DNA of 64,000 nucleotides from Anaerolineae bacterium (GTDB lineage Bacteria > Chloroflexota > Anaerolineae > B4-G1 > SLSP01), in the NCBI GenBank assembly GCA_035347995.1, contig DAOPQD010000005.1, positions 6,433 through 70,432 on the forward strand. Reading direction: 5' to 3'. Positions within the stretch are counted from its first letter, which is position 1; each line of letters opens with the position of its first letter. Of the stretch, positions 13,331 through 64,000 are shown one piece after another. Below the pieces are notes generated by a model that was given only the letters and a program-made list of their open reading frames with translations, was not told the origin of the DNA and did not search any database. A program made the translations under genes and the position numbers.

Positions 13331-13393
13331 ACGCGCCCCTCACCCCGCAGATATACTCGCGCTTCAGTTATACTTTCCACTATACTTTCCACG

Positions 13394-13414
13394 GTTACAA
13401 TCTTTCATTGTAAC
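13394..13414. promoter_or_regulatory. perfect 8+8 inverted repeat GTTACAAT-ctttc-ATTGTAAC located 64-84 bp upstream of the recN start; candidate SOS/LexA-type operator
   Basis: The palindrome is read directly. It is preceded by the tandem repeat tatactttccac x2 (13366-13392). Confidence 0.4.
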
Positions 13415-13458
13415 GATTCAACCACCGACTGAGAAACGGCATAGATTTCAGAGCAATT

Positions 13459-13659: not shown

Positions 13660-13969
13660 GAGATTTGAAAGATTATGGCCGTGAGCAGTATCACATCATC
13701 GAAAATTTACCAGAGATGCCGGAGACACAGGAAAAATCTGATAAGACGCCGTGTCCTCTGTGACTCCAGGGTTAAAATTATTTGCGCCGCTGAGGCCGTC
13801 TTATTTCCGATACCGTCCAATGAAAAAAAGCATATACCTGATTAGCCGAGAAAGCAAGTCCGCCGACGTTTGGAAGGCTTTGAAACAGGTCTGAGAGCTT
13901 TTGAGAGCTGCTTTATGCTAAGATGTGAGCGTTAAAAGATAGCCAGGACATCGGGAGTATAGTCTGCCT

Positions 13970-15271: not shown

Positions 15272-15319
15272 GGCGTCGCACCGTGTCCGGCGCGCCGAAA
15301 CTGGAATCAGGAGGTCATT

Positions 15320-16384
15320 GTGGCAGAACGTTGGACCATGCATCCACAACGCCCGGTGGGAATTGTCGGTTATGGCTCGTACGTGCCCATGTACCGCCTG
15401 CCCAATGCGGAAATCAGCCGCATCTGGGGCAGCGGCGATGAGGGGGGGCCCATCAAGGAAAAGGCCGTCGCCGGATTGGATGAGGACACAATCACCATTG
15501 CGATCGAGGCCGCGCGCAACGCTTTGAGTCGCGCCGGCATTGCTCCCGAAGACATCCGCGCGGTCTGGATAGGCAGCGAATCGCATCCCTACGCCGTCAA
15601 ACCGAGTTCGACGGTCGTGGCTGAAGCGCTCGGCACGTCCCCCTATCACCTGGCGGCGGACCTGGAATTCGCCTGCAAGGCCGGCACCGAGGCGCTGCAG
15701 GCGGCCATCGGCCTGGTCGGCTCTGGCATGGCGCGCTACGCCCTGGCCATCGGCGCGGACACGGCGCAAGGGCGGCCCGGCGATGCGCTGGAATACACCG
15801 CTGCTTCCGGCGGGACCGCCTTCATCGTAGGGCCGGCGGAGGAGGCGCTCGCGGTGCTGCGCGGGTCGCTCTCTTTCGTCACCGATACGCCCGACTTCTG
15901 GCGGCGCGCCTATCAACATTATCCCAGCCACGGCGGACGCTTTACCGGCGAACCGGCTTACTTCCACCACATTCAATCCGCTGCTGAGGCGCTGCTGGAG
16001 GAGATGGGATTGGGGCCCCAGGATTTCACCTACGCCATCTTCCATCAGCCCAACGTCAAATTCCCGGAGCGGGTAGGCAAGCGCCTGGGCTTCACCAAAG
16101 AGCAGCTGCAGCCGGGTCTGATCAGCAACCGCATTGGGAACACCTACGCCGGCGCGGCGGTGACGGGCCTCTCGGCGACGCTGGATGTCGCCAAAGCGGG
16201 GGATCGCATCCTCATGGTCAGCTTCGGCTCCGGCGCCGGCTCCGACGCTTTCGTGTGGGACGTCACGGGGGCGCTGGAAGAGCGGCGACATCACGCGCCG
16301 CTGGTACAAGACTATATCGCCCGCCGCGTGGAAATTGACTACGGTCTGTATGTCCGCTATCGCGGCAAACTGCTGGTGAAGTAG
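15320..16384 (+). CDS. HMG-CoA synthase, archaeal type (~350 aa)
   Basis: 354-aa [28 protein letters not shown]... Confidence 0.85.
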
Positions 16385-41402: not shown

Positions 41403-41894
41403 TCAATGTTGACGCAGAAACTGACCCAGGTCAGGGTTCTGCTGAATGGCAAAATTTCCATGCCCGAAGGCGTGCAGCAATCTCCGCGATTGAGGGCTGT
41501 GAAATTGGGGAGCAGAGCCGCGCGTGCAAATATACGCCTTCCAAGTCGTTTGTTGTCGAAGCGGTTGAGCATGATTAGCGTTGAAATGCGGCGCAAGCGA
41601 TTGCAGCGTGTTGATGACTTGCTCGATGGCATGCGTGATATCGCTTCCCTTCAGCTCTACAATGCAAATGGTAGTGGACGCGCTTCCCTCAGGCGTGTAG
41701 AAAACCAATAGATCGCTCAAGGCGCCGCAGATGTGCAGTTCGGCACGCAAGGCACAGGGACGATTTGTCTGATCGTCAATGGCAAACCATTTCCAAGTCT
41801 CACCCTGGCGCGGGGTAACGCGCACGACAATACCTCTTTCTCTGTAAGCATTTCCTGGGTGCCGACAGCGTTCGCGCATGGTTGAACAAGGCAT
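41403..41894 (-). CDS. hypothetical protein of 163 aa, translationally coupled partner of the AAA_21-type ATPase; low-GC islet gene
   Basis: ORF MPCSTMRERCRHPGNAYRERGIVVRVTPRQGETWKWFAIDDQ...IVELKGSDITHAIEQV... No motif recognisable by eye. GC is about 52% against about 65% in the flanks. Confidence 0.5.
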   Translation of the reverse strand: MPCSTMRERCRHPGNAYRERGIVVRVTPRQGETWKWFAIDDQTNRPCALRAELHICGALSDLLVFYTPEGSASTTICIVELKGSDITHAIEQVINTLQSLAPHFNANHAQPLRQQTTWKAYICTRGSAPQFHSPQSRRLLHAFGHGNFAIQQNPDLGQFLRQH

Positions 41895-41896
41895 CG

Positions 41897-43315
41897 TTAC
41901 TCAACCGCTCCCACAACATCAAGGACATCAAAATAAATTTGAGAAATACGGTCAGAAACCCGCCCAAAAGTGCCCCAGTCAATATCGCCCTGTTCATCCA
42001 GAATGCTGTGCGCGGTCCCCTTCTCAAAAAGGTAAACCGCAACTTGTGCCTGTGAGAGTAAGGCCGCCTCACGTTTCAGGAAGAAATGCTCAGCGGCTTC
42101 AGCAGGTCTTGGATGGCGTGCACCGGCTATCAGGTTGGCCAGGTGATCCACCACATACGGGCTATGGGTAGTGGCCATCACATTGATCCCGGCATTGACC
42201 ATCATGCCGAGGAATTCCACTAACCGTACCTGGGCTTCCGGATGAAGATTCATTTCGGGTTCATCAATCACCACTAAATCGCCTTCAGTGGCCAAATACC
42301 GCAGATAAAATACCAGCGGCGCCAATTCTTTGACCGCTGAAGAGGCTGCATTGATACCCAATGCCCCGCCAGGAATCGAGAAATGGATGCGTCGTTCGAT
42401 ACTTGGCTCCGGAGTGGAAAAGTCAACCTTTCCCCCCAATAAGTCATGTTCCAAAATTTCGGCAAGCCGCAGGTATTCGTTGATCTCAGGCTCTTGGCGC
42501 GCCTGCTGTTCCCGTTGAACGCGCGTGCCAGTCAAAAGAGCGGTCGTCATCCACCCCTGGTAAATAGTAATAGGAAAATTCACCATGGTGCGTTTTAGAT
42601 TCTCTGTCAAATCCGCATAAGATTGCATAGTCGAGCCATACCCAGGCAAGCCCCGCAATAATTGTCCAACTTGTTCTAACTGGGGGAAAAAACCACTACG
42701 TTCTGTGGGAAACGGCCAAACGAAGGCATATAAACAACGGTGTAACGCGGCAAAGATATTTCGGGCCACAAATTCACGGATGATGGTAGGATGTAGATTC
42801 GAGGCTTCGCCTTCGGTGTAAAAGTACAACGTTGTATTGCCAGTTTCTTTTAGCGCGCGCAAAACACCGCCGACCTGGTCTTTGACTTTCAGCTCAGCTA
42901 ATTTGTCCCATTTTTCTGAAGTATAATCTACTGTGACTTGTAGCTGTGTTTGTTTGAAATTGGTAACTGGCGCGCCAATCACGGTTGGGAGCCAATCTTG
43001 AGCAAGTCTGGCAATGCCGTCAAAGTACATCTCCCCATAGCGTTCCGCAAACGTCAATAAATCAACCTGAGAATTTCCTTTTCTTGATAATTCTTCAATA
43101 ATAGTTTCTATAACAGGATAATTCTCTGAAGTTTTTTGTTCTTTGAACGCATTTAAGTATTCTAACCAGCCATAACCGAATAGCCCCAGAAGGTTAGCAA
43201 TGGCATTTGCGGTCCAGGTTTTTCCCGCATTGCTAGGGCCAACAAAAATCGTCAGTGGGCGCAGTGCTATCTCGGCGTTTTCAACCGGGCCTAAATTTCT
43301 AATACTTATTTTCAT
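41897..43315 (-). CDS. AAA_15/AAA_21-family ABC-like ATPase (OLD/PtuA/AbiLi-like), candidate defence-system ATPase
   Basis: 472-aa ORF with Walker A GPSNAGKT, a Walker B/D-loop block VVIDEPEMNLHP, an H-loop TTHSPYVVD and an AT-rich sequence. It starts 14 nt after the mutS stop. Confidence 0.7.
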   Translation of the reverse strand: MKISIRNLGPVENAEIALRPLTIFVGPSNAGKTWTANAIANLLGLFGYGWLEYLNAFKEQKTSENYPVIETIIEELSRKGNSQVDLLTFAERYGEMYFDGIARLAQDWLPTVIGAPVTNFKQTQLQVTVDYTSEKWDKLAELKVKDQVGGVLRALKETGNTTLYFYTEGEASNLHPTIIREFVARNIFAALHRCLYAFVWPFPTERSGFFPQLEQVGQLLRGLPGYGSTMQSYADLTENLKRTMVNFPITIYQGWMTTALLTGTRVQREQQARQEPEINEYLRLAEILEHDLLGGKVDFSTPEPSIERRIHFSIPGGALGINAASSAVKELAPLVFYLRYLATEGDLVVIDEPEMNLHPEAQVRLVEFLGMMVNAGINVMATTHSPYVVDHLANLIAGARHPRPAEAAEHFFLKREAALLSQAQVAVYLFEKGTAHSILDEQGDIDWGTFGRVSDRISQIYFDVLDVVGAVE

Positions 43316-43329: not shown

Positions 43330-45972
43330 CTACTTCCGCGACTTGCGCCCCTTAGGTTCCCCCGTCACGAGCCGCTGCCACTCGTACAATTTGGTCAGCG
43401 CCTCGAGTGGGGTGAGGCTGTTCACATCCAGCGTGCGCAGCGCCTCGATCACGGGGTGCTCTTTGGCGATGAGCAGCGGCTGGAACGGTTCCGGTTCCGC
43501 CGCGCCGGGCCGAAATTCGCCGCTCTCCAGCTGCACCAGCAACGCCTCGGCGCGATGGACGACCGGCGCGGGCACGCCCGCCAACCGCGCGACGTGAATG
43601 CCATAAGAGCGATCCGCCCCTCCCGGCGCCACCCGGTGCAGAAAAACCACGTCCTTCCCCTCTTCGACCACCGCCAGGTTGAAGTTACGGACGTGCGGGA
43701 GATGCTCTTCCATCTCGATGAGCTCGTGGTAGTGCGTGGCGAACAGGGTGCGCGCCCGGCGCTCCGGGTGATTGTGAAGATATTCTACCACAGCCCACGC
43801 AATTGCCATCCCGTCATAGGTGCTCGTGCCGCGCCCGATCTCGTCCAGAACCAGCAGGCTTTGCGGTGTGGCGTGATTGAGAATCGCGGCCGTTTCCACC
43901 ATCTCCACCATGAATGTGGATTGTCCCGCCGCCAGCTCGTCGGAGGCACCGATGCGCGTGAAGATGCGATCCGCTATGCCGATCTGCGCCGCGTCCGCCG
44001 GCACAAAACTGCCGATTTGCGCCATCAACACGATGAGTGCGCTTTGACGAAGGAACACTGATTTCCCGGCCATGTTAGGGCCGGTGATGATGTGGATCCG
44101 ACTGTCCTCATCCATCCGCAAGTCGTTGGGGACAAAGGGCGTCTTGAGCGTGCGTTCCACCACGGGATGCCGCCCGGCGCGGATATCGAGCACTGGCGCG
44201 GACGTGAGGGTGGGACGGACGTAGTGATAACGCGCGGCGACTTCCGCCAGCGCCGCCGCCACATCGAGCCGGGCCAGCGCCGCGGCGAGTGCCAGCAGCT
44301 CCGCCGCGTGAGCGGCCACCTGCGCACAGAGCTCGCGGAACAGCCGCGCCTCCAGCTCGTTGATGCGCTCCTCGGCATTGAGCACCAGGCTTTCGTATTC
44401 TTTGAGCTCCGGCGTGATGTAGCGCTCCGCGTTGACCAACGTCTGTTTGCGGATGTAATCCGCCGGCACGGCCCCGGCATTGGCGTGCGTGACCTCGATG
44501 TAGTAGCCAAAGACCTTATTGTAGCCCACCTTCAGGGTCTTGATGCCCGTGCGCGCGCGTTCCTTGCCCTCCAGGGCAGCGATCCACTCACGGGCGTCCC
44601 GGCTCGCCAGGATGATGCCATCGAGTTCGGCGGAAAAGCCGGGGCGGATGAGGCCGCCGCCATTCGCCTGCGGCGGGGGGTCGTCTACCAGCGCCGCCGC
44701 GATGAGCGCGGCCACCTCGGGCAAGGGCGCCAGGCCTTCGGTCAGCGCCGCAAAGCCCGGGGGCGCAGTCCGCGCCTCTGCCACGAGGGCGCACAGCTCA
44801 GGCACCGTCTCCAGCGCGGCGCGGATGCCGACGAGGTCACGAGGAGGCGCTTTCCCCGCCGTGACGCGATTGACCATCCGCTCCAGGTCGGGGACTGGTT
44901 TGAGCAAACGGCGCACGGAGGCCCGCAACAAGCCCTCTTCCACCAGCCCCTGCACCTGATCCAGGCGCGTCTCCAGGGCGGTGATGTCGAGCAACGGACG
45001 TTGCAGCCGGTGCAGCAGCAGCCGGCCGCCCATCGCCGTCAACGTCATATCGAGCACCCCCAGCAACGAACCGTGCTTCTCGCCGCGCAAGGTCTCCGTG
45101 AGTTCCAGATTGCGCCACGTCGCCGGATCCATCGCCATGAAGTGCCCGGTCGAATACGTCATCAGCCCCACGATCTGCGGCAGCATCCCCTGCTGCGTCT
45201 CCTGCAGATACGCCAGGATCGCGCCGGCAGCCCGCACCGCCAGCGGCTTGCCCTCGCAGCCGAAGCCCTCCAGCGTGCGCACCCCGAAATGTTCCAGGAG
45301 CGTTTGCCGCGCGGTCGTCTCCTCGAAGCGGTAAGCGGCCCACGGCGTGAAATGCGCCGGCAACGACCCGGCGAGCGCCTCTTCGGGGGATGTTTCTGGC
45401 TGATCGGAAGCGCGCTCCTTCCACGAGCCGACCTTGGGGAAAAGCACCTCACGCGGCTGAAGGCGCGCCAATTCCTGCCGCGCCGCCGCGAGGATGTCGC
45501 CATCCTCGCTGAGCTGGGTCGCGCCGAACTCGCCGGTGGAAATCTCCGCGTAGGCGATGCCCGCGCGTTCGCCCTCGATCACCACAGCGGCGAGGTAATT
45601 CGGACGTTTCTCGTCGAGCAGTGCCGGCTCGATGAGCGTGCCGGGCGTGACAACGCGCTCGATGCGGCGCTCCATCGGCCCACGACCGTCAGGCTCGCCT
45701 ACCTGCTCGGCAAGCGCCACACGATAGCCTTTCTCGATGAGGCGGGCGACGTAGTTTTCTACCGCGTGATAGGGCACCCCCGCCATCGGAATGCGCACGC
45801 CCTTCGCCACCGGGCGCGAGGTGAGGACAATATCCAGCTCCCCGGCCACCAGTTCGGCGTCGGCGTCGAAGGTCTCATAGAAATCGCCCAGCCGGAAGAA
45901 CAGGATAGTGTCCGGATAGCGGGCTTTCAATTCCAAATATTGCTTGCGGATGGGGGTCGTGTCTTCACTCAT
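43330..45972 (-). CDS. mutS: DNA mismatch repair protein MutS; start placed at MSEDTTPIRKQY
   Basis: ...TPIRKQYLELKARYPDTILFFRLGDFYETF..., GPNMAGKS, TH(Y)HEL. Confidence 0.95.
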   Translation of the reverse strand: MSEDTTPIRKQYLELKARYPDTILFFRLGDFYETFDADAELVAGELDIVLTSRPVAKGVRIPMAGVPYHAVENYVARLIEKGYRVALAEQVGEPDGRGPMERRIERVVTPGTLIEPALLDEKRPNYLAAVVIEGERAGIAYAEISTGEFGATQLSEDGDILAAARQELARLQPREVLFPKVGSWKERASDQPETSPEEALAGSLPAHFTPWAAYRFEETTARQTLLEHFGVRTLEGFGCEGKPLAVRAAGAILAYLQETQQGMLPQIVGLMTYSTGHFMAMDPATWRNLELTETLRGEKHGSLLGVLDMTLTAMGGRLLLHRLQRPLLDITALETRLDQVQGLVEEGLLRASVRRLLKPVPDLERMVNRVTAGKAPPRDLVGIRAALETVPELCALVAEARTAPPGFAALTEGLAPLPEVAALIAAALVDDPPPQANGGGLIRPGFSAELDGIILASRDAREWIAALEGKERARTGIKTLKVGYNKVFGYYIEVTHANAGAVPADYIRKQTLVNAERYITPELKEYESLVLNAEERINELEARLFRELCAQVAAHAAELLALAAALARLDVAAALAEVAARYHYVRPTLTSAPVLDIRAGRHPVVERTLKTPFVPNDLRMDEDSRIHIITGPNMAGKSVFLRQSALIVLMAQIGSFVPADAAQIGIADRIFTRIGASDELAAGQSTFMVEMVETAAILNHATPQSLLVLDEIGRGTSTYDGMAIAWAVVEYLHNHPERRARTLFATHYHELIEMEEHLPHVRNFNLAVVEEGKDVVFLHRVAPGGADRSYGIHVARLAGVPAPVVHRAEALLVQLESGEFRPGAAEPEPFQPLLIAKEHPVIEALRTLDVNSLTPLEALTKLYEWQRLVTGEPKGRKSRK

Positions 45973-46128
45973 ACGCGCATTATACCCGTGGGATAAAAAT
46001 CGGGCAAGAATCACCGGAGGGCAAAATCGCTCTGGGGGGGCGCAGTCGCCCGTGACGTCTCGACGCGGGATAACCAACAGTCCCCCTGAAGCGCTCCAGG
46101 GGGACTATCTTGAGGATCAAGGGGACGG

Positions 46129-53030: not shown

Positions 53031-53189
53031 GGACCTTGCGAGTGCTTCGGCGACGGGATCGAGGAACAGCGCGTTGGGGTCGGCGCCAAGCCGTGACCCC
53101 GCGCAGAACGCGCACACTTGTCAGACTTCCAAGAGTGAGTATACTGAAAACACTGGCGTATGACAGTAACTCGCACACGAGGGAATAAC

Positions 53190-54125
53190 ATGAATCCACG
53201 GTTCTCAGTTGTAGCCCCAGTATTTAATGAAGAAGCGCTGATCGAGGAATTCTACCAGCGCGTCCGCAATGTGATGGAAGGGATAGGCGAGCCGTGGGAG
53301 CTCGTGCTCGTCAACGATGGCAGCCGCGACCGCTCCCCGCAGCTGCTGGATCAACTTTACGCCCAAGACCCCGAACATGTCGTCGTCCTCCATTTCTCCC
53401 GCAATTTTGGGCACCAGCTGGCCATCACCGCCGGGTCGGATTACGCCCGCGGGGACGCCGTGACCGTCATTGATTCCGACCTGCAAGATCCGCCGGAGGT
53501 CATCCCCGAATTTATCGCCAAATGGCGCGAGGGATACGAGGTCGTCTACGGCGTGCGCGCTGAACGCGAGGGGGAGACGTGGTTCAAGCTCTTCACCGCC
53601 GACCTCTTCTACCGGCTCATCCAGGCGCTCACGGATGTCGTCATCCCCATGGAAGCGGGCGATTTCCGCCTGCTGGACCGCAAGGTGGTGGAAGTGATGC
53701 GGGAGATGCACGAGGGGCACCGCTTCGTGCGCGCGATGGTGTCGTGGGTCGGCTTCCGGCAGATCGGCGTGCCCTATCGCCGGTTAGCGCGCAAAGCGGG
53801 GGAGAGCAAGTATCCCTTCCGCAAGATGTTTCGGCTGGCGCTGGACGCCATCACGGGCTTCTCCTTCCTCCCCCTGAAGCTGGCCCTGTGGTGCGGCGCG
53901 CTGGCCACGGTCGCCGGGCTGATCATGGCGCTGGTATTACTCATCCTGCGGCTCAACGGCAGCATGCCCCTCGCCGGACAAGGACTCACCGCCAGCCTCG
54001 TCCTCTTCATGGGCGGCGTGCAGCTCCTGGTCATGGGCATCTTGGGCGAGTACCTCGGACGCATCTACGATGAAGTCCGGCGCCGTCCGCTATACATCAT
54101 CCGCGAAATCAAACGCCAGGAATAA
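53190..54125 (+). CDS. family 2 glycosyltransferase (polyprenol-phosphate sugar transferase type, GtrB/ArnC-like) with C-terminal TM helices
   Basis: SVVAPVFNEE...LVLVNDGSRDRS...DSDLQDPPE... Confidence 0.85.
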   Translation: MNPRFSVVAPVFNEEALIEEFYQRVRNVMEGIGEPWELVLVNDGSRDRSPQLLDQLYAQDPEHVVVLHFSRNFGHQLAITAGSDYARGDAVTVIDSDLQDPPEVIPEFIAKWREGYEVVYGVRAEREGETWFKLFTADLFYRLIQALTDVVIPMEAGDFRLLDRKVVEVMREMHEGHRFVRAMVSWVGFRQIGVPYRRLARKAGESKYPFRKMFRLALDAITGFSFLPLKLALWCGALATVAGLIMALVLLILRLNGSMPLAGQGLTASLVLFMGGVQLLVMGILGEYLGRIYDEVRRRPLYIIREIKRQE

Positions 54126-54190
54126 GTGCCGCAGCTGCTTTCCCTGGAAAGTCTGTTTTCAACAATGAGCTTTATCACAAGGAGCATCAC

Positions 54191-55666
54191 ATGGGCCTCT
54201 GGGAAGCATATTACACCGCCACCAGCGTCGAAGAAGCGGTGCGCCTGCTCGCCGAGTATGGGGAGCGCGCGCGCATCGTCGCCGGCGGCACCGATTTGCT
54301 CATCGAGATCGAGCATCAGACGCGCACGCCTGCCGTGCTCATTGACATCACCCGCATTGGCGGATTGGACGAGCTCCGCCTGCGGGATGACGGCCTCATC
54401 CATCTGGGACCGATGGTGACGCACGCGCAGGCAGCCGCCTCGCCACTGCTCCAGGAGCACGCCCTGCCGCTGGCCCAGGCCTGTTGGGGGGTCGGCGCGC
54501 CGGCGCTCCGCAACCGGGGCACCCTCGCCGGGAATCTGGTCACCGCCTCGCCGGCCAACGATACCATCACCGCGCTCCGTGCCCTCGACGCCCATGTCAC
54601 CCTGCGAAGTGCGCACGGCGAACGGCAGGTCCCCCTCGCCGATTTCTACACCGGCGTGCGGCGTACCATCATGGAACCCGAAGAGCTGCTCGTAGGGATC
54701 AGCTTTAAGCCCCTCAAAGAGTCGTATCAAGGGATTTATCTCAAGCTGGGACTGCGGCGCGTCCTTGCCATTGCCGTCACGAATGTCGCCATCGTGCTCG
54801 GCCTCGAGGGAGAACGGGTGAGCGAAGCGCGCCTGGCGCTGGGGAGCGTCGCCCCCACCATCATCCGCGCGCCTGAAGCCGAAGCAGCGCTGCACGGACA
54901 GCCGCTGGATGAAGCGCACATCGCCCAGGCGGCGGAGCTGGCAGCGCAAGCCGCACGGCCCATTGATGACGTGCGCGGCTCCGCCTGGTTCCGCAAGGAA
55001 GAGGTGGCCGCGCTGGTCCGGCGGGGCCTGCAGGCCCTGGCGCGCCATGAACCGCGACTCGACCTGCCCCAACCCGAAACGATGCCGCTGTTGTGGGGCA
55101 AATCCCGCTGCCGTCCGCGACTGGCCGGCCCCACGATCGCCCATCACAGCGAGGGCGAGGAGCCCATCCAGTTCACCGTCAACGGTGAGAATGTCGCCGT
55201 GCGCGGCGCCAACGGCACCACCCTGCTGCATCTCCTGCGCGATGACCTGGGACTCACGGGCACCAAAGTCGGCTGCGAGGAGGGCGAATGCGGCGCCTGC
55301 ACCGTCTGGATGGACGGCGTCGCCGTGCTGGCGTGTCTTACCCCCGCGCCGAGAGCGCACGGGACCAACATCGTCACCATCGAGGGGCTCTCCAAAGGCG
55401 AGTCCCGGCATCCCGTCCAGGAGGCTTTTGTGGAGGAAGACGCCGTCCAGTGCGGCTATTGCACGCCGGGCTTCGTGATGAGCGCCGCGAAGCTATTGGA
55501 AGAACGTCCGCATCCCAGCCGGGAGCAAATTGTCGCCGCCCTCAGTGGCAATCTCTGCCGCTGCACGGGCTACTACAAGATCATCACCGCTGTGGAAAAC
55601 GCCAGCCGGCAACTAAGCGAGAAGCGAGCAGACGCCAGCGATGAAACGCACAGTGCCGACAGTTGA
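54191..55666 (+). CDS. xanthine dehydrogenase/CO dehydrogenase family fused FAD-binding + [2Fe-2S] subunit (FAD domain N-terminal)
   Basis: FAD-binding ARIVAGGTDLLIE...; C-terminal ferredoxin GCEEGECGACTV...CGYCTPGFVMS...NLCRCTGY. Confidence 0.85.
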   Translation: MGLWEAYYTATSVEEAVRLLAEYGERARIVAGGTDLLIEIEHQTRTPAVLIDITRIGGLDELRLRDDGLIHLGPMVTHAQAAASPLLQEHALPLAQACWGVGAPALRNRGTLAGNLVTASPANDTITALRALDAHVTLRSAHGERQVPLADFYTGVRRTIMEPEELLVGISFKPLKESYQGIYLKLGLRRVLAIAVTNVAIVLGLEGERVSEARLALGSVAPTIIRAPEAEAALHGQPLDEAHIAQAAELAAQAARPIDDVRGSAWFRKEEVAALVRRGLQALARHEPRLDLPQPETMPLLWGKSRCRPRLAGPTIAHHSEGEEPIQFTVNGENVAVRGANGTTLLHLLRDDLGLTGTKVGCEEGECGACTVWMDGVAVLACLTPAPRAHGTNIVTIEGLSKGESRHPVQEAFVEEDAVQCGYCTPGFVMSAAKLLEERPHPSREQIVAALSGNLCRCTGYYKIITAVENASRQLSEKRADASDETHSADS

Positions 55667-57371
55667 CGCGGATCGCATCAACCTCTACCTGCGAACCTAC
55701 TATTCCCTGCTCCGCACTACCGAGGAGGTGCAAATCCGCACGCTGGAAGAGACGCACACCTCGCTGCACTCCATCCTGCACCAGGGAGCCAGGGAGATGG
55801 CGGTGGATATGTCCGCCTTCATCTACAGCGGCCTGCGCCTCCCTCAATGCATTCGGGACACCCGGTTGATCGTGTTGGGACAGACCGAGGAGGTTTTTCG
55901 GCGCCGCGGCTTCGCCGACTTCAGCTCCTGGACGCCGGTGTCGGCGCCGGGGCGCCGGCGCCGGATGCTCTACGACGGCAAAGAGACCCTCGCCGCCTTC
56001 ATCGCCAGCATCTCCGACGTGGATGACCTCATTCCCATCCTCGTCGCCTTTCAGATCGAATGGAATAAGATTCACCTGCTGATCACGCAGGCGGGATTGC
56101 AGGGGCGTGTGGCCGCCTGGGCGGAAACAAGAGCCGCCGACACCACATTGAACGAAGAGCTGCAGAAGGCGCTGGGCATCACCGCCGAAGAGTGGGAACG
56201 GCTCACGCGCGTCTGGGGCGCCGACCTGCCAGGATTCCTGGCGGACATCGCCGCACGCCGCAAACGGATGGCCGTGCGGCTTCTCGCCGGTTCGTATGTG
56301 GATTACCGACGCGCGACGCAGCGATGGTGGTGGCACGTGAGCGACAACGCTCCCATTGACCTGCAAGACCGGGACGTCTACTTCGTCTCCAGCAACACGC
56401 ACAGCCTGACCAACATGCTCACCGGTTTCGCCCAACGGCACGAGCAGCTGCTCATGGATTACATCGCCCATTGCGGCGACGTCGAGCTGCAGACAGAGGC
56501 GCACCACATCCAGCAGGGGGTCGTCCGCAGCAATTGGGCGAATTTCCTCTACTACGTGCTCAAGAAGTACCTGGCGACCCCAGAGGGCGCGGCCTTGTCG
56601 CAGGAACGCAAAGAATATGAAGCGGCTCACGGCGTCACCCGCATCCCCAGCAGCCAGACCTTCGACCTCGAGGCGCAGGTGATTGAGCTGGCGCGCCTCG
56701 ACCCGCAAGTGGTAGATCGGCGACTGCGGGATTTGCCGCTGGAACGCCTGGCGGACAGCAAATCCGTCATCCTCAACATTGATTATCCGTTGGGATTTGC
56801 CGCCTATCATTTGCTCTCGCGCATCGTGGCGAACGTGGGCGACCTGCGCGGCCTCTACGTCATCGGCAAAGCCGCCACGCTCAACGCGCGCATCGGCGAT
56901 GTGTTGATCCCCAACGTGGTCTATGACGAGCATTCGCACAATACCTATCTTTTCAACAATGTTTTCACGGCCACGGATGTGGCGTGCTATGCCGTCTACG
57001 GGGACGTGCTCGACAATCAACGCGCGCTGACGGTGTGGGGGACTTTCCTGCAGACCGAAGCCTACATGAAGGGCTTCCTCGACGCCGGCTACACCGACGC
57101 AGAAATGGAAGCCGGGCCCTATCTCTCGGCGGTCTACGAATTCATCCGCCCGCGCCGCTATCCTACCGATGAAGTGGTCAATCTGTACCGCACGCCCTTC
57201 GAGATCGGCATCCTGCACTACGCCTCGGACACGCCCATCAGCAAGGGACAGAACCTGGGCGCGCAGAATCTCTCGTACTACGGCATGGATCCGACGTATG
57301 CGGCGACGGTGGCCGTGCTGCGCCGCATCTTCACTCTGGAAACGGCGGACTTGCCCCGAGCCGACAAATAA
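55641..57371 (+). CDS. AMP nucleosidase-like protein (N-terminal regulatory-type domain + C-terminal PNP/UDP-fold catalytic domain)
   Basis: The C-terminal half aligns with E. coli Amn: LNIDYPLGFA / VNIGVGPSNA, IGDVLIPNVVYDEH / IGDYVLAHAYLRDDH, DAEMEAGPY / AVDMESATI. Confidence 0.65.
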   Translation: MKRTVPTVDADRINLYLRTYYSLLRTTEEVQIRTLEETHTSLHSILHQGAREMAVDMSAFIYSGLRLPQCIRDTRLIVLGQTEEVFRRRGFADFSSWTPVSAPGRRRRMLYDGKETLAAFIASISDVDDLIPILVAFQIEWNKIHLLITQAGLQGRVAAWAETRAADTTLNEELQKALGITAEEWERLTRVWGADLPGFLADIAARRKRMAVRLLAGSYVDYRRATQRWWWHVSDNAPIDLQDRDVYFVSSNTHSLTNMLTGFAQRHEQLLMDYIAHCGDVELQTEAHHIQQGVVRSNWANFLYYVLKKYLATPEGAALSQERKEYEAAHGVTRIPSSQTFDLEAQVIELARLDPQVVDRRLRDLPLERLADSKSVILNIDYPLGFAAYHLLSRIVANVGDLRGLYVIGKAATLNARIGDVLIPNVVYDEHSHNTYLFNNVFTATDVACYAVYGDVLDNQRALTVWGTFLQTEAYMKGFLDAGYTDAEMEAGPYLSAVYEFIRPRRYPTDEVVNLYRTPFEIGILHYASDTPISKGQNLGAQNLSYYGMDPTYAATVAVLRRIFTLETADLPRADK

Positions 57372-57401: not shown

Positions 57402-59648
57402 ATGAAAAAAACTTACGTTGGTGAAGCGCATCCCCGCATTGACGGCCTCGCCAAGGTCACGGGGCAGGCACCCTATTCCGGCGATTTCAACATGGAGGGC
57501 CAGCTGCACATGAAACTGCGCTTCGCCGGCCGCCCGCACGCGCGGGTGCTCGGCGTGGACGCCAGCAAGGCCCTGGCTGTGCCCGGCGTTGTCGCGGTCT
57601 TCACCTCACGGGATGTGCCCGTGAACGAATACGGCCTGCAATATCCCGATCAACCGGTGCTGTGCGGCCCTGGCGATCCCAAAGAGGGCACCGATATCGC
57701 TCGTTTTGTGGGCGATCAAATCGCGGCGGTGGTCGCGGAGACCGAAGAAGCCGCGGCCAGGGGACGCGATCTCCTCGAGGTGGACTTCGAGGAGTTGCCG
57801 GCCGTGACCGATCCGCGCGCCGCGCTGGAACCGGGTGCGCCCATCCTGCACCCCGCCTACCCCGGCACCCCCATCCACCCGGAGCTGATCTTCGAGGGCA
57901 ACCTCGCCTCGCGGCATCGCATCCGGCGGGGCGATGTAGACGCCGCCTGGGATCAGGCCGCTGTCATCGTCGAATCGGACTACGAGATTCCGGGGCAGGA
58001 GCACGCCTTCCTGCAGCCTGAAGCGGCGCTCGCTTACATAGATGAAGCGGGGCGCGTGACTATCATCGCCAGCACGCAATGGATTCACGAGGACCGCCGT
58101 CAGATCGCGCACGCGCTGGGGCTGCCCGAAGAGCAGGTGCGGATCATTCTGCCTGCCATTGGCGGCGCTTTTGGGGGCAAAGAAGACCTCTCCGTGCAGA
58201 TCGTCGCCGCGCTGGCCGCGATGAAATTGCAACGTCCCGTCAAAATCGTGTGGACGCGGCGCGAGTCCATCATCGGACATCACAAACGCCATCATGTCTT
58301 TGCCCGCGCGCGCTGGGCGGCGGATGCCGAAGGGCGACTTCTGGCCGCCGAGACCCAGGTCGTCGCCGACGCCGGCGCTTACGTGTACACCACCAACAAG
58401 GTCCTGGGCAATCTGTTGCTCACCGTCAACGGCGCCTACCGCATCCCGAACGTCAAGACCGAGGTGCTGGGAATCTACACCAACAACGTGCCGGGCGGCG
58501 CTTTCCGGGGCTTCGGCGCGCCGCAGGGCAATTTCATCGCCGAATCGCAGATGAACAAACTGGCCGAGGCTCTGGGACTCGATCCGGTGGAAATCCGCCT
58601 GCGCAATCTCGTCCATGACGGCGACCCGATGCCGTGGGGCAAACCGCTCCCCGATGACGGGCGCGGGCTGGAGGAAAGCCTCCTCGCGGCGGCGCGAGCG
58701 CTGGGCTGGGAACAAACGCCGCAGGGCTGGCGCGCTCCCCGGGTCGAGCCGCGCCCCGGCGATCCACCCACCCGGCGGCGGGGGGTGGGGATCGCCCTGG
58801 CGTTCAAAAACGTGGGGTTTTCCTTCGGCTATCAGGAAAATGCCTGGGCCGCCATCGAATTGCGCGGCGATGCCGAGATCGAAAGCGCGACCGTCTTCGC
58901 CGCCAGCGCCGATGTGGGACAGGGAACGCGCACGGTGATCCGACAGATGGCAGCGGAGGCGTTGGGAGTTCCCATCGAGCGTGTCGAGGTGGCCGCCGCC
59001 GATAGCGCGATCACCCAAAGCTCCGGCTCCTGCTCCGCCTCGCGGATGACGTTTATGATCGGCAATGCAGTCCGGGGGGCGGCGGCCGCGGCGCTGGAGA
59101 AATGGCGCGCGGAGGAACGTCCCGCCAGGGCTGAAGTCACCTATCTCGCGCCGCAGACTACGCCCATTGATCCGCTGACCGGCTACGGACATCCCAATTT
59201 CTCGTATGGCTACGTCGCTCTCGGCGTGGACCTCAGCATTGACACGGAGACGGGGGAGCTGCACGTGGCCAAAGTCGCCTGCGCCAACGATGTCGGACAG
59301 GCGATCAATCCCCGGCTGGTGCAAGGGCAAATCGAGGGCGGGGTCATCCAGGCGCTGGGCTGGACCACCACGGAGCACTTCATCGAGAAAGACGGCCGGC
59401 CGCTCACCGATTCGCTCAGCACGTATCTGATTCCCACCATCGCCGATATTCCCGATCAGCTAGAGACGCTCATCCTCGAGAATCCAGAACCCAACGGTCC
59501 GTGGGGCGCTCGCGGCATGGGGGAGATGCCCTTCATCCCAATGGCAGCGGCCATGCATCAGGCAGTGCATGAGGCGACGGGCGTCTGGTACAACCGCTTC
59601 CCCTTCAACGCCGAGCGGATTTTGCGCGGAATTAAGGGGATCTATTGA
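57402..59648 (+). CDS. xanthine dehydrogenase family molybdopterin-binding large subunit
   Basis: 748-aa ORF with Ald_Xan_dh_C-type blocks ...GGAFGGKE...GGAFRGFGAPQGNFIAE... Confidence 0.9.
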   Translation: MKKTYVGEAHPRIDGLAKVTGQAPYSGDFNMEGQLHMKLRFAGRPHARVLGVDASKALAVPGVVAVFTSRDVPVNEYGLQYPDQPVLCGPGDPKEGTDIARFVGDQIAAVVAETEEAAARGRDLLEVDFEELPAVTDPRAALEPGAPILHPAYPGTPIHPELIFEGNLASRHRIRRGDVDAAWDQAAVIVESDYEIPGQEHAFLQPEAALAYIDEAGRVTIIASTQWIHEDRRQIAHALGLPEEQVRIILPAIGGAFGGKEDLSVQIVAALAAMKLQRPVKIVWTRRESIIGHHKRHHVFARARWAADAEGRLLAAETQVVADAGAYVYTTNKVLGNLLLTVNGAYRIPNVKTEVLGIYTNNVPGGAFRGFGAPQGNFIAESQMNKLAEALGLDPVEIRLRNLVHDGDPMPWGKPLPDDGRGLEESLLAAARALGWEQTPQGWRAPRVEPRPGDPPTRRRGVGIALAFKNVGFSFGYQENAWAAIELRGDAEIESATVFAASADVGQGTRTVIRQMAAEALGVPIERVEVAAADSAITQSSGSCSASRMTFMIGNAVRGAAAAALEKWRAEERPARAEVTYLAPQTTPIDPLTGYGHPNFSYGYVALGVDLSIDTETGELHVAKVACANDVGQAINPRLVQGQIEGGVIQALGWTTTEHFIEKDGRPLTDSLSTYLIPTIADIPDQLETLILENPEPNGPWGARGMGEMPFIPMAAAMHQAVHEATGVWYNRFPFNAERILRGIKGIY

Positions 59649-59668
59649 ACATTAAAGGGGAATGAAAA

Positions 59669-61078
59669 ATGTATCTCAAAAAAATCCGATTAAAAAACAT
59701 CAAATGTTTCTCGGATATCACCCTGGATTTTTCACCGGAGGGACAGCCGCGGCTTTGGACTGTGATTCTCGGACAGAACGGATTAGGCAAAAGCACCTTG
59801 CTTCAAGCTATTGGCATTGTATTGGCCGGCCCCATAGCTATACGTGAATTGCTCCCTGTAGCCGAAGGATGGGTGAAACGCGACTGCCCCTATGGAGAGA
59901 TTGAAGCCGAGCTTTTGTGGACCGAAGGCGATGCACAAATTCCAAAATGGCCCAAAAAAACGCCCTACACTGTAAAATACGCCATAGTTGGTGAAGATAT
60001 AGACAATGGAAGCCTGCCTTCTAATCTGGCGTCACAATATACTGGCGTTCCAATTGTGACAGAATGGGCGGGGGACGGCATTTCTAAAAAACAGGAAAAT
60101 ATTTCTAAGGATTTGAATCGCCTGAGACAGACAGCCTACGCGGAGGGAAAGACCGGCTGGCTGGGGTGCGGATATGGACCTTTCAGGCGTTTGAGTGGCG
60201 GAGCACAGAATGCAGATAGAATTTTGTATTCTGGTAGAAAATCTGCCCGCTTCATCACCTTATTCAGAGAAGACGCAGCCCTCACAAATGCCACCGAGTG
60301 GCTAATCTCACTCTACAACACCGGGCGAGATGGAAATGAATTAAGCCAGCGGACCTTGAGACAGGTAAAACGAATTTTCGAAGCCGAATTCTTACCTCGC
60401 CCTGCAGAATTGTTAGTAAATGCTCAATCAGCGCTTCTAAGGATTGAGGGACATAATCCGGTTCCTTTTCGAGACTTGAGTGATGGATATCGAAGTATGC
60501 TGGCGATGGGGATTGACCTGCTAAGATGGGTTAGCGTAGCTTTTCCAGAAAAAGAAGATCTCATGGAGGTCGCTGGGGTAGTGGTCATTGATGAACTCGA
60601 TGCCCATGCCCATCCCGCATGGCAACGTGAGATCGGCCATTGGCTACGACGAAAATTTCCAAAATTACAATTTATCATTGCAACCCATAGTCCTTTTTTG
60701 GCACAAGTCGCAGATGAACCCGGCGGGAATATTGTTTTAGTCCAGACCGAAGCAGGGGTACAAAAACGCGATGATGTGGAACTGGTTGAAGCCTGGCGAG
60801 CAGACCAAATTCTTACAGATCTTATGGAATTAAACTCTACTCGCTCACCAGAAGTGGATCGAAAAATCCATAAACTCAATGAATTAAGTCAAAAACGGGA
60901 AGCATTAGAGCAAAAACAGGAAAGGCTCCCCCCAGCACAAGAGGATGAATACCAACAACTCAGACTATGGGTTGAACAACTCCCGCCAGCCATTGAGGAT
61001 CCATGGCAACGGCGGCAGGCAGAAAGGGTTCAACAAGAAATCGCCCAAGCGCTTCCACAACTAGAGGAGCTTGAATGA
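59669..61078 (+). CDS. ptuA: Septu-type PtuA-like AAA_15/21 ATPase (low-GC islet)
   Basis: Walker A GQNGLGKST, Walker B VVVIDELDAHAHP, H-loop ATHSPFL, C-terminal coiled coil. GC is about 45%. Confidence 0.7.
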   Translation: MYLKKIRLKNIKCFSDITLDFSPEGQPRLWTVILGQNGLGKSTLLQAIGIVLAGPIAIRELLPVAEGWVKRDCPYGEIEAELLWTEGDAQIPKWPKKTPYTVKYAIVGEDIDNGSLPSNLASQYTGVPIVTEWAGDGISKKQENISKDLNRLRQTAYAEGKTGWLGCGYGPFRRLSGGAQNADRILYSGRKSARFITLFREDAALTNATEWLISLYNTGRDGNELSQRTLRQVKRIFEAEFLPRPAELLVNAQSALLRIEGHNPVPFRDLSDGYRSMLAMGIDLLRWVSVAFPEKEDLMEVAGVVVIDELDAHAHPAWQREIGHWLRRKFPKLQFIIATHSPFLAQVADEPGGNIVLVQTEAGVQKRDDVELVEAWRADQILTDLMELNSTRSPEVDRKIHKLNELSQKREALEQKQERLPPAQEDEYQQLRLWVEQLPPAIEDPWQRRQAERVQQEIAQALPQLEELE

Positions 61079-61830
61079 TAAAAGTTCGCCGTGGGCCACA
61101 ACCGGAAGGATTTCATGAACGAGCGATTAGCTGGCAAACTCGCTTTGAGCAAGAGCGAGAAAGTAATCCTTCGCTTACCATCACAAGATTCTGGGACAGA
61201 ATCCGAAATGAAATCCGCGCAGATGCAGAGCACCTATATCATGTTTCGCATGGGAAATGTGCTTTCTGTGAAAGTTACATGGCTGATGTATCTACCCCAC
61301 ACATAGAACACTATCGCCCCAAGAGCAAATTTCCGGAGCTGGCATTCGTTTGGGACAACTGGTTACTGTCATGCCAATGCTGCAATGGCAAAAAATGGGG
61401 ACACTTTCCAATATGTGAAGATCTGCCATGTTTGATAGATCCTGGAAATGAAGATCCAGAAATGCACATAACCTTCGAAGGATACACTCCAATCTCAAAA
61501 ACACCGCGTGGCGAAAAAACGATTGAATTGCTCGGGTTAAGACGAAGTCCCCTGGAAGACGAACGTAGCCGATGGTTAAACTATGTCAGCATATTATTGC
61601 TGAGCTGGTGTAATACTAAAGATTCAATGCTAAAAGACGAAATACGCGAGCTGCTTATCTGGGCCATGCAAGATGAGGCGCCATACGCCGCAATGACACG
61701 CTGCTTCTTGCAAAAGTATGCCCCGCGATTGGCTTCAAAAGCACATCCCCCTGTAACCTGCCCCAGGCCCTTGATGCGTATTCAAGAGCTAGTTGAACAA
61801 TGGAGTCATGAATTCGTTGGACTCGAGTGA
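61075..61830 (+). CDS. ptuB: Septu-type PtuB-like HNH endonuclease
   Basis: CAFCESYMADVSTPHIEHYRPKS...NWLLSCQCCNGKKWGHFP (C-x2-C, EH, N-W, C-x2-C-N). It overlaps the ptuA stop. Confidence 0.7.
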   Translation: MIKVRRGPQPEGFHERAISWQTRFEQERESNPSLTITRFWDRIRNEIRADAEHLYHVSHGKCAFCESYMADVSTPHIEHYRPKSKFPELAFVWDNWLLSCQCCNGKKWGHFPICEDLPCLIDPGNEDPEMHITFEGYTPISKTPRGEKTIELLGLRRSPLEDERSRWLNYVSILLLSWCNTKDSMLKDEIRELLIWAMQDEAPYAAMTRCFLQKYAPRLASKAHPPVTCPRPLMRIQELVEQWSHEFVGLE

Positions 61831-62437
61831 GAAGAGCCTCCGTTTCGGAGTCTTGGGCGGGAGCTTTGATCCGCCGCATTACGGCCATCTGGCGCTGGCG
61901 GAGACCGCGCGGGTGCAGCTGCAACTGGCGCGCGTGCTGTTCGTCCCAGCGGGAGAGCCGCCTCACAAAACGGACGTGGATTTGAGCCCGATTGCGAAAC
62001 GGGTCGCGCTCGTCCAGGCCGCCATCGCCGACAACGGCTCCTTCGCCCTCTCCCGCGTGGATGTGGATCGCGCCGGCCCCCATTACACGGTGGACATGCT
62101 GCGCCTGCTGCGCACGGAATTCCCGCAGGTGACCGACTGGTTTCTGCTGCTCGGCGAGGATTCGCTCCACGATTTTCTGAGCTGGCGCGCGCCAGAGGAA
62201 ATCCTCGAGCTGGCAGAACTCGCGGTGATGCGGCGCCCCGAAAAGCCCGCGCCGCTTGAGACATTGCAGGAACGCCTTCCCACGCTGGAGCGGCGGCTCA
62301 CCTGGTTGGATGTGCCACCGCTCCACCTCAGCGCCACCGAACTACGGCGCCGCGTCCGCGAGGGGTTGCCCCTGCGTTACCTGGTCCCGTTGCCGGTAGA
62401 GGTACTGATCCGCAAACACCAGCTCTACACGGGCTGA
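61808..62437 (+). CDS. nadD: nicotinate-nucleotide adenylyltransferase; start uncertain (the ATG at 61808 or a downstream TTG)
   Basis: GVLGGSFDPPHYGHLALAE... Confidence 0.8.
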   Translation: MNSLDSSEKSLRFGVLGGSFDPPHYGHLALAETARVQLQLARVLFVPAGEPPHKTDVDLSPIAKRVALVQAAIADNGSFALSRVDVDRAGPHYTVDMLRLLRTEFPQVTDWFLLLGEDSLHDFLSWRAPEEILELAELAVMRRPEKPAPLETLQERLPTLERRLTWLDVPPLHLSATELRRRVREGLPLRYLVPLPVEVLIRKHQLYTG

Positions 62438-64000
62438 TCCGCCAGCTCTAACGCGCCGTTCGCCGGCATTGCCAGTGGCTCCATCTGCAGCTGCACCAGA
62501 TTGAGGTGCCGATACAGCCCCTCTTGCGCGATCAGTTCCCGATGCGTCCCCATCTGCACGATGGTGTTGCCCTCCAGCACCACGATCTTGTCGGCGTTGC
62601 GCACCGTCGAGAGGCGATGCGCGATGATCAACGTCGTGCGCCCCACCATCAACCGCTCCAGCGCCTGCTGAATCAGCAGCTCCGTTTCGGTGTCCACCGA
62701 TGAAGTCGCCTCGTCCAAAATGAGGATGGGCGCATTTTTGAGCACGGCTCGCGCGATCGCCAGGCGCTGCTTCTGCCCGCCGGAAAGTTTCACCCCACGT
62801 TCGCCGATGAGGGTGTCGTAGCCATTGGGCAGCCGCCTGATGAAATCATGCGCATTGGCGACCTGCGCGGCGCGGAGAACTTCTTCCTCCGTGGCGTCCG
62901 GCTTCCCGAAAAGGATGTTTTCTCGCGCCGTGCCGTGGAAGAGAAACACGTCCTGCAACACAATGCTGATCTGCCGGCGCAGATACTCGAGCTTGAGCGC
63001 CCGCAGGTCGTAGCCATCGAGGGTGATGCTTCCCTCGCAGACGTCGTAGAAGCGAGGGATGAGGCTTGCCAGGGTGGTTTTGCCCACGCCCGTCGGTCCC
63101 ACCAACGCCACCACACCGTGCGCGGGAATCTCCAGGTTGATGTGTTCCAACACCGGTTCGCCCTCGTTGTACCAGAAACTCACATCGTGGAAAGCGATCG
63201 CGCCCTGGATCGGGGTCGGCAGCTCCCTCGCGTCCGGCGCTTCCACGACCGTCGGCTGCTCGTTGAGCAACTCCGAGACGCGCTCGGCGCCGGCGAGCGC
63301 TTCCTGCACCCCTTCCCATGCATCCGCCAGAACGCGGATGGGCTGATAAAACAGGTCGAGGTAAAGGTAAAAGGCGACCCAATCCTCCAGCGGCAAGACT
63401 TGCTGCAGCACCAATCGCCCGCCGAAGTAGATCATCAAAATCACGCCCAGGGAGGAGGTGAACTCCACGAAGGGGTGGAAGGTCGCCATGAGCCGCAGCG
63501 CACGCAACAGGGCGTCCCGGTACCGGGCGATGTGTTCCCCCACGTGTCCCGCCTCCAGCTCCTCACGCGTGAAGGCCTTGATCTCCCGAATGCCGGCGAT
63601 GTTGTCGTTGAGCGTGGCGTTGAGCTCGCCCAGCTCCTTCTGTCGCACCACGAATGCGGGACGAACGTAGCGGGCGAAACTGCGCATCGAGAGGATAATG
63701 AAAGGCACCGGGATCAGGCTGAGCAGCATCAACTGCCAGTTGATGGTGACGAGGACCGCCGTCACGCCGATCAAAGTGAGCGCATTGACGGTAATATCGG
63801 GGATAGCATGCGCGATGAGGCGCTCGAACATGTCCGAATCGTTCACCACGCGCGACATCAGTTGCCCGGTCTGTTTGTCCTCATAGAAGCGCAGCGACAG
63901 GCGCTGCAGGTGCACATAAATCTGATGCCGCACGTCCGCGACGACGCCCCATCCCGCGACATGTCCCATGTAGCTCCGCACGAACTGCAATCCGCCGCGG
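62425..64000 (-). CDS. ABC exporter, fused permease/ATPase (MsbA-like); the N-terminus lies beyond the window
   Basis: TMD followed by an NBD with GPTGVGKTT, LSGGQKQRLAIARAV and ILILDEATSSVD. Confidence 0.85.
   Translation of the reverse strand, partial: RGGLQFVRSYMGHVAGWGVVADVRHQIYVHLQRLSLRFYEDKQTGQLMSRVVNDSDMFERLIAHAIPDITVNALTLIGVTAVLVTINWQLMLLSLIPVPFIILSMRSFARYVRPAFVVRQKELGELNATLNDNIAGIREIKAFTREELEAGHVGEHIARYRDALLRALRLMATFHPFVEFTSSLGVILMIYFGGRLVLQQVLPLEDWVAFYLYLDLFYQPIRVLADAWEGVQEALAGAERVSELLNEQPTVVEAPDARELPTPIQGAIAFHDVSFWYNEGEPVLEHINLEIPAHGVVALVGPTGVGKTTLASLIPRFYDVCEGSITLDGYDLRALKLEYLRRQISIVLQDVFLFHGTARENILFGKPDATEEEVLRAAQVANAHDFIRRLPNGYDTLIGERGVKLSGGQKQRLAIARAVLKNAPILILDEATSSVDTETELLIQQALERLMVGRTTLIIAHRLSTVRNADKIVVLEGNTIVQMGTHRELIAQEGLYRHLNLVQLQMEPLAMPANGALELADQPV

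Follow-up and report, generated by a model that had tools for sequence, protein, structure and literature searches.

A two-gene cassette of low guanine-plus-cytosine (GC) content lies within a string of housekeeping genes on the plus strand of a 64,000-nt stretch of DNA, hereafter the window, from an Anaerolineae bacterium (GenBank assembly GCA_035347995.1, contig DAOPQD010000005.1, positions 6,433 to 70,432). Its first gene, ptuA, encodes an ABC-type ATPase and its second, ptuB, an HNH nuclease, and the pair stands between the gene for the molybdenum cofactor (MoCo)-binding subunit of a xanthine-dehydrogenase-family enzyme (xdh) and nadD. The locus is best explained overall as a standalone (type I) Septu anti-phage system, a promoterless-looking cassette spread by recombination, and this reading is considered very probable. 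The features that make up the locus are as follows.

57402–59629, plus strand: left flank, native sequence of the gene for the MoCo-binding subunit of the xanthine-dehydrogenase family (Pfam MoCoBD_1 at 2.9e-83, MoCoBD_2, Ald_Xan_dh_C)
59630–61840, plus strand: inserted segment, 2,211 bp with 46.8% GC, standing in for 85 bp of native sequence
59630–59648, plus strand: rewritten 3' end of xdh, now IKGIY-stop against the ancestral LRGK-stop
59649–59668, plus strand: 20-nt spacer before ptuA with an AAAGGGG ribosome-binding site
59669–61078, plus strand: ptuA, ABC-type (AAA_15/AAA_21) ATPase of Septu, 469 aa
61075–61830, plus strand: ptuB, HNH nuclease of Septu, 251 aa
61808–61840, plus strand: new 5' end of nadD contributed by the insert, with start ATG 61808 or TTG 61817
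61841–62437, plus strand: right flank, native nadD (nicotinate-nucleotide adenylyltransferase) from the conserved RFGVLGGSFDPPHYGH motif (Pfam CTP_transf_like at 8.1e-23)

ptuA and ptuB are adjacent on the same strand and share 4 nt in an ATGA start/stop overlap, as an earlier reading made from the sequence alone had described, and they form a translationally coupled two-gene cassette. The GC content is 46.97% over 59649–61792, far from uniform with the 65.2% of xdh and the 63.1% of the right flank. Among all 2,162-bp segments of the 64 kb, which average 0.615 with a standard deviation (sd) of 0.036, the lowest begins at 59651 and lies about 4 sd under the mean, and GC at third codon positions (GC3) is 0.42/0.43 in the islet versus 0.78/0.80 in the flanks. 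The GC step is therefore real, abrupt and unique in depth within the window. The sequence-only reading had put the GC between the xdh stop (59648) and nadD at about 45%; the drop was borne out, while the value came to 47%, with local 300-bp lows of 42–45%.

The 20-nt spacer upstream of ptuA is so short that it cannot hold a promoter. A scan of 59000–62600 returned no sigma-70-like promoter (2.4 were expected by chance) and no plus-strand terminator, and its four minus-strand terminator-like matches against 4.3 expected are at chance level. No tRNA gene was found in the 64-kb window. Another low-GC patch (~49–50%), short and without a credible open reading frame (ORF), occupies a divergent intergenic region at 13330–13970, where it separates a recN-like gene (11495–13330, minus strand) from a gene at 13970–15271 (plus strand).

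Family assignment of PtuA and PtuB

Homology searches place the pair in the PtuA/PtuB families over nearly the full length of the profiles, in agreement with the Septu-like identity first proposed and not with a family outside defence. The PADLOC model PtuA1 (PDLC00295) matches PtuA at 5.7e-90, with residues 1–458 aligned to profile positions 1–441 of 451, and a second PtuA profile (PDLC00269) reaches 3.2e-89; 23 of the 25 best PADLOC matches are PtuA models, and the OLD, Gabija and PARIS families are absent from these 25. The Pfam domains AAA_21 (70.9 bits) and AAA_15 (63.1 bits) each score over their cut-offs. The ATPase motifs quoted by the sequence-only reading (GQNGLGKST, DELDAHAHP, ATHSP) all occupy defined positions, namely Walker A at G35-QNGLGKST-43 with K41, the Walker B stretch at V304-VVIDELDAHAHP-316 with D308/E309, and A338-THSP-342 with the H-loop H340, and the ABC signature is found at L270-SDGYRS-276 (LSDGYR at 270–275). 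K41, S271/G273, D308/E309 and H340 are invariant in an alignment of 48 PtuA sequences.

The AlphaFold2 model of PtuA built from the same 48-sequence alignment has a mean predicted local distance difference test score (pLDDT) of 90.1 and a predicted template-modelling score (pTM) of 0.88. The coiled coil named in the sequence-only reading corresponds to three predicted C-terminal helices (394–415, 422–435 and 445–468, forming an extension over 394–468). All of the top 50 Foldseek matches of the model in the PDB are PtuA chains, among them 8EEA, 8EE4 and 8SUX; their probability is 1.00 and their TM scores are 0.5–0.64, or up to 0.65 when normalised to the target. In the PDB sequence search with PtuA, chains of PtuA associated with retrons and that of the standalone E. 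coli Septu (8EE4) were retrieved, and OLD appeared there as a weak N-terminal P-loop match (6p74, 2.8e-07). No Pfam match to a Toprim domain was found in the cassette, the partner of the ATPase being an HNH protein.

For PtuB, the PADLOC model PtuB1 (PDLC00337) matches at 6.3e-45, with residues 1–217 aligned to profile positions 1–213 of 216, and the PDB PtuB chain 22bv_F matches at 4e-9 over residues 53–212. The nuclease motifs listed earlier (C-x2-C, HIEHY, N-W, C-x2-C-N) were all located, at C62-x2-C65, H76-IEH-79, N95-W and C100-QCC-N104 (C100/C103, N104), and a helical C-terminal domain is present besides the HNH domain. The HNH and Cys residues are intact and, like the nucleotide-binding motifs of PtuA, invariant.

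The architecture is that of standalone Septu, with two adjacent co-oriented genes, no third component, a PtuA close to the ~465 aa of its standalone counterparts with Walker A/B, signature, H-loop and C-terminal helices, and an HNH PtuB with a helical C-terminal domain. The insert is filled by the two genes, leaving 20 nt upstream and 10 nt downstream and no third ORF, and neither a reverse transcriptase (RT) nor an msr-msd non-coding RNA (ncRNA) was found in 59630–61840, where the neighbours are xdh and nadD. PtuA is 469 aa long, compared with 465 aa for standalone PtuA and 542–552 aa for retron PtuA, and in the PDB sequence search its residue 2 aligned to residue 65 of the retron Ec78 PtuA, so the N-terminal extension of the latter is absent. 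This extension of ~60 aa serves RT and ncRNA binding in retron PtuA (PMC12819146). The same ptuA-ptuB architecture recurs in seven other contexts, none of which (0/7 examined) has an adjacent RT. The PtuAB pair is thus a distant member of the already known type I Septu family. It differs from the known standalone systems in residing in an uncultured anaerobic Chloroflexota lineage, in being apparently promoterless within a housekeeping gene string and in supplying the nadD start, and from the E. coli Septu systems (8EE4, 8EE7, 8EEA, 8SUX; EcB88, PMC13096335) in the low identity of its PtuA (~16–21%) and in a signature Tyr instead of Leu.

Three other identities were weighed against standalone Septu. 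A type I-A retron ('type II Septu'), of which Retron-Eco7/Ec78 and Retron-Eco4/Ec83 are examples, could have the pair as its effector half, restrained by an RT and multicopy single-stranded DNA (msDNA) that are encoded elsewhere or lost. The effector pairs are homologous, with the same ATPase and HNH folds, retron PtuA/PtuB chains are among the top PDB sequence and fold matches, and the NCBIfam PtuA/PtuB models, which are retron-Ec78 ones only, give significant partial matches (1.6e-37 and 3.3e-13). These matches nevertheless fall far under the equivalog cut-offs (NF041760, 129.6 vs 500; NF041761, 50 vs 150), no Rfam family occurs anywhere in the 64-kb window, the 2,211-bp insert has no room beyond its two genes, and the window pair is without RT, ncRNA/msDNA and the PtuA extension, on which grounds the retron association was discarded as highly improbable. 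A modification-dependent (type IV-like) restriction enzyme, in which the ATPase and HNH proteins would cut modified phage DNA directly instead of acting by abortive infection, would account for the PADLOC mREase_IV matches to both proteins (PDLC03660 at 5.3e-33; PDLC03661 at 1.4e-13) and for DNA nicking as one reported Septu activity. Since the PtuA and PtuB models match more strongly by 57 and 31 orders of magnitude, the mREase_IV match of PtuB covers only residues 46–179, and the structural neighbours are solely PtuA chains, little credence is given to it. The probability that the pair is a core-genome housekeeping ATPase of the SMC/RecF/RecN/Rad50-like repair type with an accessory nuclease is negligible. 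Its first ~55 residues do match the N-terminal P-loop regions of SMC_N, RecF and Rad50, but the P-loop region alone matches and far under the cut-offs (RecF 26 vs 172), the genes are missing from same-species strains and most relatives, and a GC3 of 0.42 vs 0.78 marks them as compositionally foreign.

An exchanged junction between xdh and nadD

The junction was compared across relatives, all of them metagenome-assembled genomes (MAGs) or metagenome contigs, by using the xdh MoCo subunit as query, which gave 67 loci, most of them in MAGs of Anaerolineae and other Chloroflexota (loci of relatives are labelled L with a number below). The xdh MoCo subunit gene is conserved in more than 60 Anaerolineae relatives, and in 17 relatives among the 67 loci the junction is empty, with xdh followed by a short spacer and nadD without ptuAB. 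L083, a contig reached through nadD homologues, is an empty allele of the same species with 98.4–99.1% identity to the window on both sides. A base-by-base walk against L083 from each side set the breakpoints at 59629|59630 and 61840|61841, the last common base being 59629 and the first again being 61841, and identity over the adjoining 300 bp is 99.3% on the left and 99.0% on the right. The 85 bp lost comprise the last four xdh codons and stop, the spacer and the first six nadD codons. The precise insertion between xdh and nadD that had been proposed is therefore real as an insertion, as the 17 empty relatives and L083 show, but it is not a pure one, since 85 bp were replaced.

Both neighbouring genes were rewritten in the exchange. 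The xdh C-termini of the window and of L074, a sister lineage, differ from those of L053, L008, L010 and L083. A search for nadD homologues, which carry the source name nicotinate-nucleotide adenylyltransferase, retrieved alleles with the ancestral MSSRPV-RFG N-terminus that are otherwise near-identical to the window nadD; empty alleles read MSSRPV-RFG, while occupied ones read MNSLDSSEKSL-RFG or MNSLNSNEKRL-RFG. Gene callers choose ATG 61808 as the nadD start, a site which is CTG in L074, while the candidate TTG 61817 is conserved in the window and L074. The ptuB stop lies at 61828–61830, and nadD overlaps the 3' end of ptuB by 23 or 14 nt in another frame, so that with either start the initiation region of nadD is inside the ptuB coding sequence. 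The suggestion that the nadD start had been remodelled is thereby upheld and extends to the 3' end of xdh. Because the residues ahead of RFGxxGGxFDPPHxGH differ in length and sequence among NadD homologues, exchange of the N-terminus is probably neutral to NadD function.

The assembly collection indexes the exact PtuA protein in 71 blocks, and all 6 of the places examined showed the same context. In the sister lineage L074 (~96% nucleotide identity), the cassette is bounded by the same breakpoints, with ptuA 93.1%, ptuB 95.5% and flanks 95.3–96.2% identical to the window, and the empty loci L084 and L085 have flanks 98–99.3% identical to those of the occupied L074. With the empty L083 beside the window and the empty L084 and L085 beside L074, a presence/absence polymorphism of the cassette exists in each of at least two sister lineages of Anaerolineae. 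The ratios of nonsynonymous to synonymous substitution rates (dN/dS) between the window and L074 are 0.073 for ptuA and 0.173 for ptuB, with 0.06–0.16 in the flanking housekeeping genes, which indicates that both are functional genes kept by purifying selection. The synonymous divergence (dS) of ptuA is 0.28 in the same comparison, about twice that of ptuB and of all flanking genes (0.13–0.145), possibly because the cassette coalesces at greater depth or because synonymous sites of an AT-rich gene are less constrained.

The insert contains no integrase, transposase or other mobility gene, and no target-site duplication or terminal direct or inverted repeats were found at 59630 and 61840; the repeats that did turn up are short and internal, and no more than chance would give. 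When cassettes from seven contexts were compared, no att-like or attC-like end motif was detected except the ribosome-binding site. Close relatives of the cassette were found neither on IMG/VR viral contigs nor on plasmids or phages, the phage matches being partial with at most 47% identity. From these absences, allelic exchange by homologous recombination through the conserved flanks is the likely route of spread. Identity between the window and L074 is also mosaic: over 53160–55666 (L074 1487–3993), the glycosyltransferase gene is 99.4% and the xdh FAD/FeS subunit gene 98.6% identical, in comparison with 95–96% for the DUF6909, xdh MoCo subunit, nadD and ABC genes, pointing to ongoing, recent homologous recombination between the lineages. 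Recombination in from a low-GC relative with donor-like flanks was considered and rejected, as GC changes sharply at each breakpoint and the empty allele matches the flanks at 99% identity.

A different account of why the cassette persists is that it is retained mainly, and irrespective of any phage protection, as a selfish, addiction-like element, which holds the start and ribosome-binding region of a putatively essential nadD so that its deletion would be lethal. The position of the nadD start (61808 or 61817) within ptuB and the loss of the native start and spacer would fit such a role, as would the toxicity of released PtuAB in E. coli (PMC12640716). Empty alleles with the ancestral junction are nevertheless present in the same population, so recombinational replacement is possible, nadD does not overlap ptuB in the more distant occupied locus L075, and the strong purifying selection acting on ptuA and ptuB speaks for the importance of their own activity. 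Retention by addiction is accordingly hardly probable.

Recurrent use of the junction and proposed function

The same slot is occupied in L075, a distant MAG (xdh 74% and nadD 61% identical in protein sequence), where ptuAB lies at 8001–10165 with a PtuA 75% and a PtuB 60% identical to those of the window and a cassette GC of 47–48%. The junction sequences of L075 differ from those of the window, and its nadD has no ptuB overlap. A DUF4258 gene follows nadD in L075. In L062 (xdh 73% identical), the slot holds a low-GC HicB/HicA pair at 8310–8998 (HicB PF15919 at 1.8e-12, HicA PF07927 at 3.3e-20) whose genes are separated by a masked run of N. These occupancies suggest that the xdh|nadD junction is a small hotspot, a recurrent landing site for small accessory modules. 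Other members of the PtuA subfamily (64–72% identity) stand in unrelated contexts, always as a tight pair co-directional with its neighbours, which are mostly tens of nucleotides away, and the GC of these cassettes is equal to or under that of the host.

The occupancies of the window and L075 may be either one old insertion maintained for long as a polymorphism or two independent captures. One old insertion is favoured by the same slot, the same low GC and the nearest-neighbour relation of the two PtuAs, the shared slot and composition speaking against coincidence. It is opposed by the unameliorated GC3, since AT-richness would hardly have lasted through a long residence with neutral amelioration, by the neighbour-joining tree of xdh, in which the empty L008/L010 and L012 separate the two occupied clades, by the differing junctions and by a PtuA identity (75.5%) only marginally above the 71–73% to cassettes in unrelated contexts. 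A joint reading, rather unlikely in itself, takes the junction as a long-lived, possibly trans-species landing pad with an ancient balanced polymorphism wired into the essential nadD. Promoterless two-gene immune or toxin–antitoxin cassettes (Septu twice, HicAB once) would then be captured without a recombinase, and a GC3 of ~0.4 in hosts of ~0.8 would result from selection instead of recent arrival, for example because AT-richness throttles the translation of a toxic nuclease under operon read-through. The cassette would be stabilised as the translation-initiation region of nadD and would not be a recent horizontal acquisition.

Defence hotspots flanked by core genes and without mobile-element hallmarks are known from E. 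coli and Pseudomonas pangenomes, where they belong to the 'pan-immune system' model. The xdh|nadD junction resembles them in being a fixed position with different modules (Septu in the window, L074 and L075; HicAB in L062), often empty, whose occupancy varies within species without integrase or repeats. It differs in that the window cargo is one minimal two-gene cassette instead of a multi-system island, in that the breakpoints fall inside the coding ends of both flanking genes, and in its host, an uncultured member of the Anaerolineae.

Several points weigh against the reading of the locus as a promoterless-looking, recombination-spread Septu system. PtuA is ~16–21% identical to the characterised E. 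coli proteins in structural alignments, and its signature residue Tyr274 is Gln in retron PtuA and Leu in E. coli Septu, so the ATPase behaviour is not transferable from either. The Pfam HNH match of PtuB (22.1 bits) narrowly exceeds its cut-off of 21.4, and TIGR02646 scores 47.2, just under its cut-off of 52.15. The promoter scan used a sigma-70-type consensus, from which Chloroflexota promoters may differ. The best plasmid-borne relative is 31% identical, and recombination-mediated spread is what we infer from population patterns. The substrate (DNA or tRNA), trigger and stoichiometry ascribed to the Chloroflexota pair are presumptive, and phage resistance, 6:2 assembly and an ATP-inhibited nuclease would be carried over from the E. 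coli homologues, with the purifying selection and the strain-variable occurrence of the cassette as indirect support.

On the analogy of these homologues, the following course may be proposed for the Septu system of the window. Judged by its anatomy, ptuAB would be transcribed by read-through with xdh and nadD. PtuA oligomers would hold PtuB via the C-terminal helices of PtuA in an ATP-bound, inactive state, and phage infection would release the PtuB nuclease, as in characterised systems. The released nuclease would damage nucleic acid, by nicking DNA or by cutting tRNA-Tyr at its variable loop, with the infected cell being arrested and phage production blocked. E. coli Septu is described as a 6:2 PtuA:PtuB complex with DNA nicking, and inhibition of the PtuAB nuclease by ATP binding is reported (PMC12640716, PMC12819146). 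In the E. coli Septu EcB88, the Walker A Lys, the Walker B Asp and the HNH residues H75 and N91 are required for defence, and tRNA-Tyr is cut in its variable loop upon infection (PMC13096335).

The locus fits the current understanding of defence-system turnover and leaves the view of Septu and of defence hotspots unchanged; what is added here is the exact position of the breakpoints, the polymorphism of the cassette within the species, the rewriting of the ends of both neighbours and the recurrent use of the slot. Septu was reportedly discovered by Doron et al. in 2018, and to our knowledge its characterisation has so far been limited to E. coli and Bacillus-type hosts. The present locus extends its range to uncultured Anaerolineae of anaerobic digesters, and the PtuAB proteins, ~20% identical to solved ones with all catalytic residues kept, are useful for structure-function comparison at a distance. 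Public digester metagenomes contain the occupied allele as well as the empty one, with flanks of 99% identity, and so provide an unusually clean natural experiment in which the strain-level frequency of a single defence cassette could be tracked alongside phage dynamics. Resolved to the base, the breakpoints illustrate how such a cassette can be absorbed into a housekeeping string, taking the stop codon of one neighbour and the start codon of the other.

A second low-GC cassette and other genes of the window

Another low-GC two-gene cassette lies 16.4 kb from ptuAB (low-GC segment 41384–43323), where the sequence-only reading had rightly placed a first AAA_21-type cassette within 20 kb.

41897–43315, minus strand: AAA_15/AAA_21 ATPase ORF (PADLOC PD-T4-4_A at 6.9e-48, PDC-M47A at 1.4e-45, full length)
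41403–41894, minus strand: 163-aa partner ORF without a Pfam domain, with a weak PDC-M29B match at 5e-5

This cassette (41403–43315) has taken the place of the entire mutS-rnk spacer, stop codon to start codon, leaving gaps of 14, 2 and 19 nt. In L087 and L088, whose MutS is 88% identical, mutS is followed directly by rnk after a 111-nt spacer, which confirms that the cassette is likewise inserted among housekeeping genes. PD-T4-4 and PDC-M47 are grouped with Gabija, PARIS and OLD as systems of an AAA_15/AAA_21 ATPase plus an effector. The cassette resembles ptuAB in combining an ABC-type ATPase of the AAA_15/21 kind with a small partner, and in being a low-GC, tightly packed, co-directional insertion in place of an intergenic spacer. 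It differs in that its ATPase matches PD-T4-4_A/PDC-M47A instead of PtuA and its 163-aa partner lacks HNH, so it is a candidate defence system other than Septu. The neighbouring MutS of the window (43330–46077) is without intein or homing-endonuclease domains, while the MutS homologues P0245, P0265, P0279 and P0293 reach ~1,320–1,360 aa with such domains (PF14528, PF14890).

Upstream of the xdh MoCo subunit gene, 55641–57371 (plus strand) encodes a 576-aa DUF6909 protein (Pfam 2.7e-217) between the FAD/2Fe-2S and MoCo subunit genes of the xdh-family operon. The gene is kept at that position in nearly all of ~60 Anaerolineae relatives, and its product is apparently an uncharacterised, obligatory partner of the xdh-family molybdoenzyme. 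Beyond the 3' end of the window, ~1 kb past the ABC-transporter gene, the otherwise identical L001, L002 and L003 diverge at ~14550–15560 and continue with PLDc_N/ABC, S1/FtsK and SBP_bac_3/GyrB, respectively, pointing either to strain variation in this region or to an assembly break caused by a repeat.

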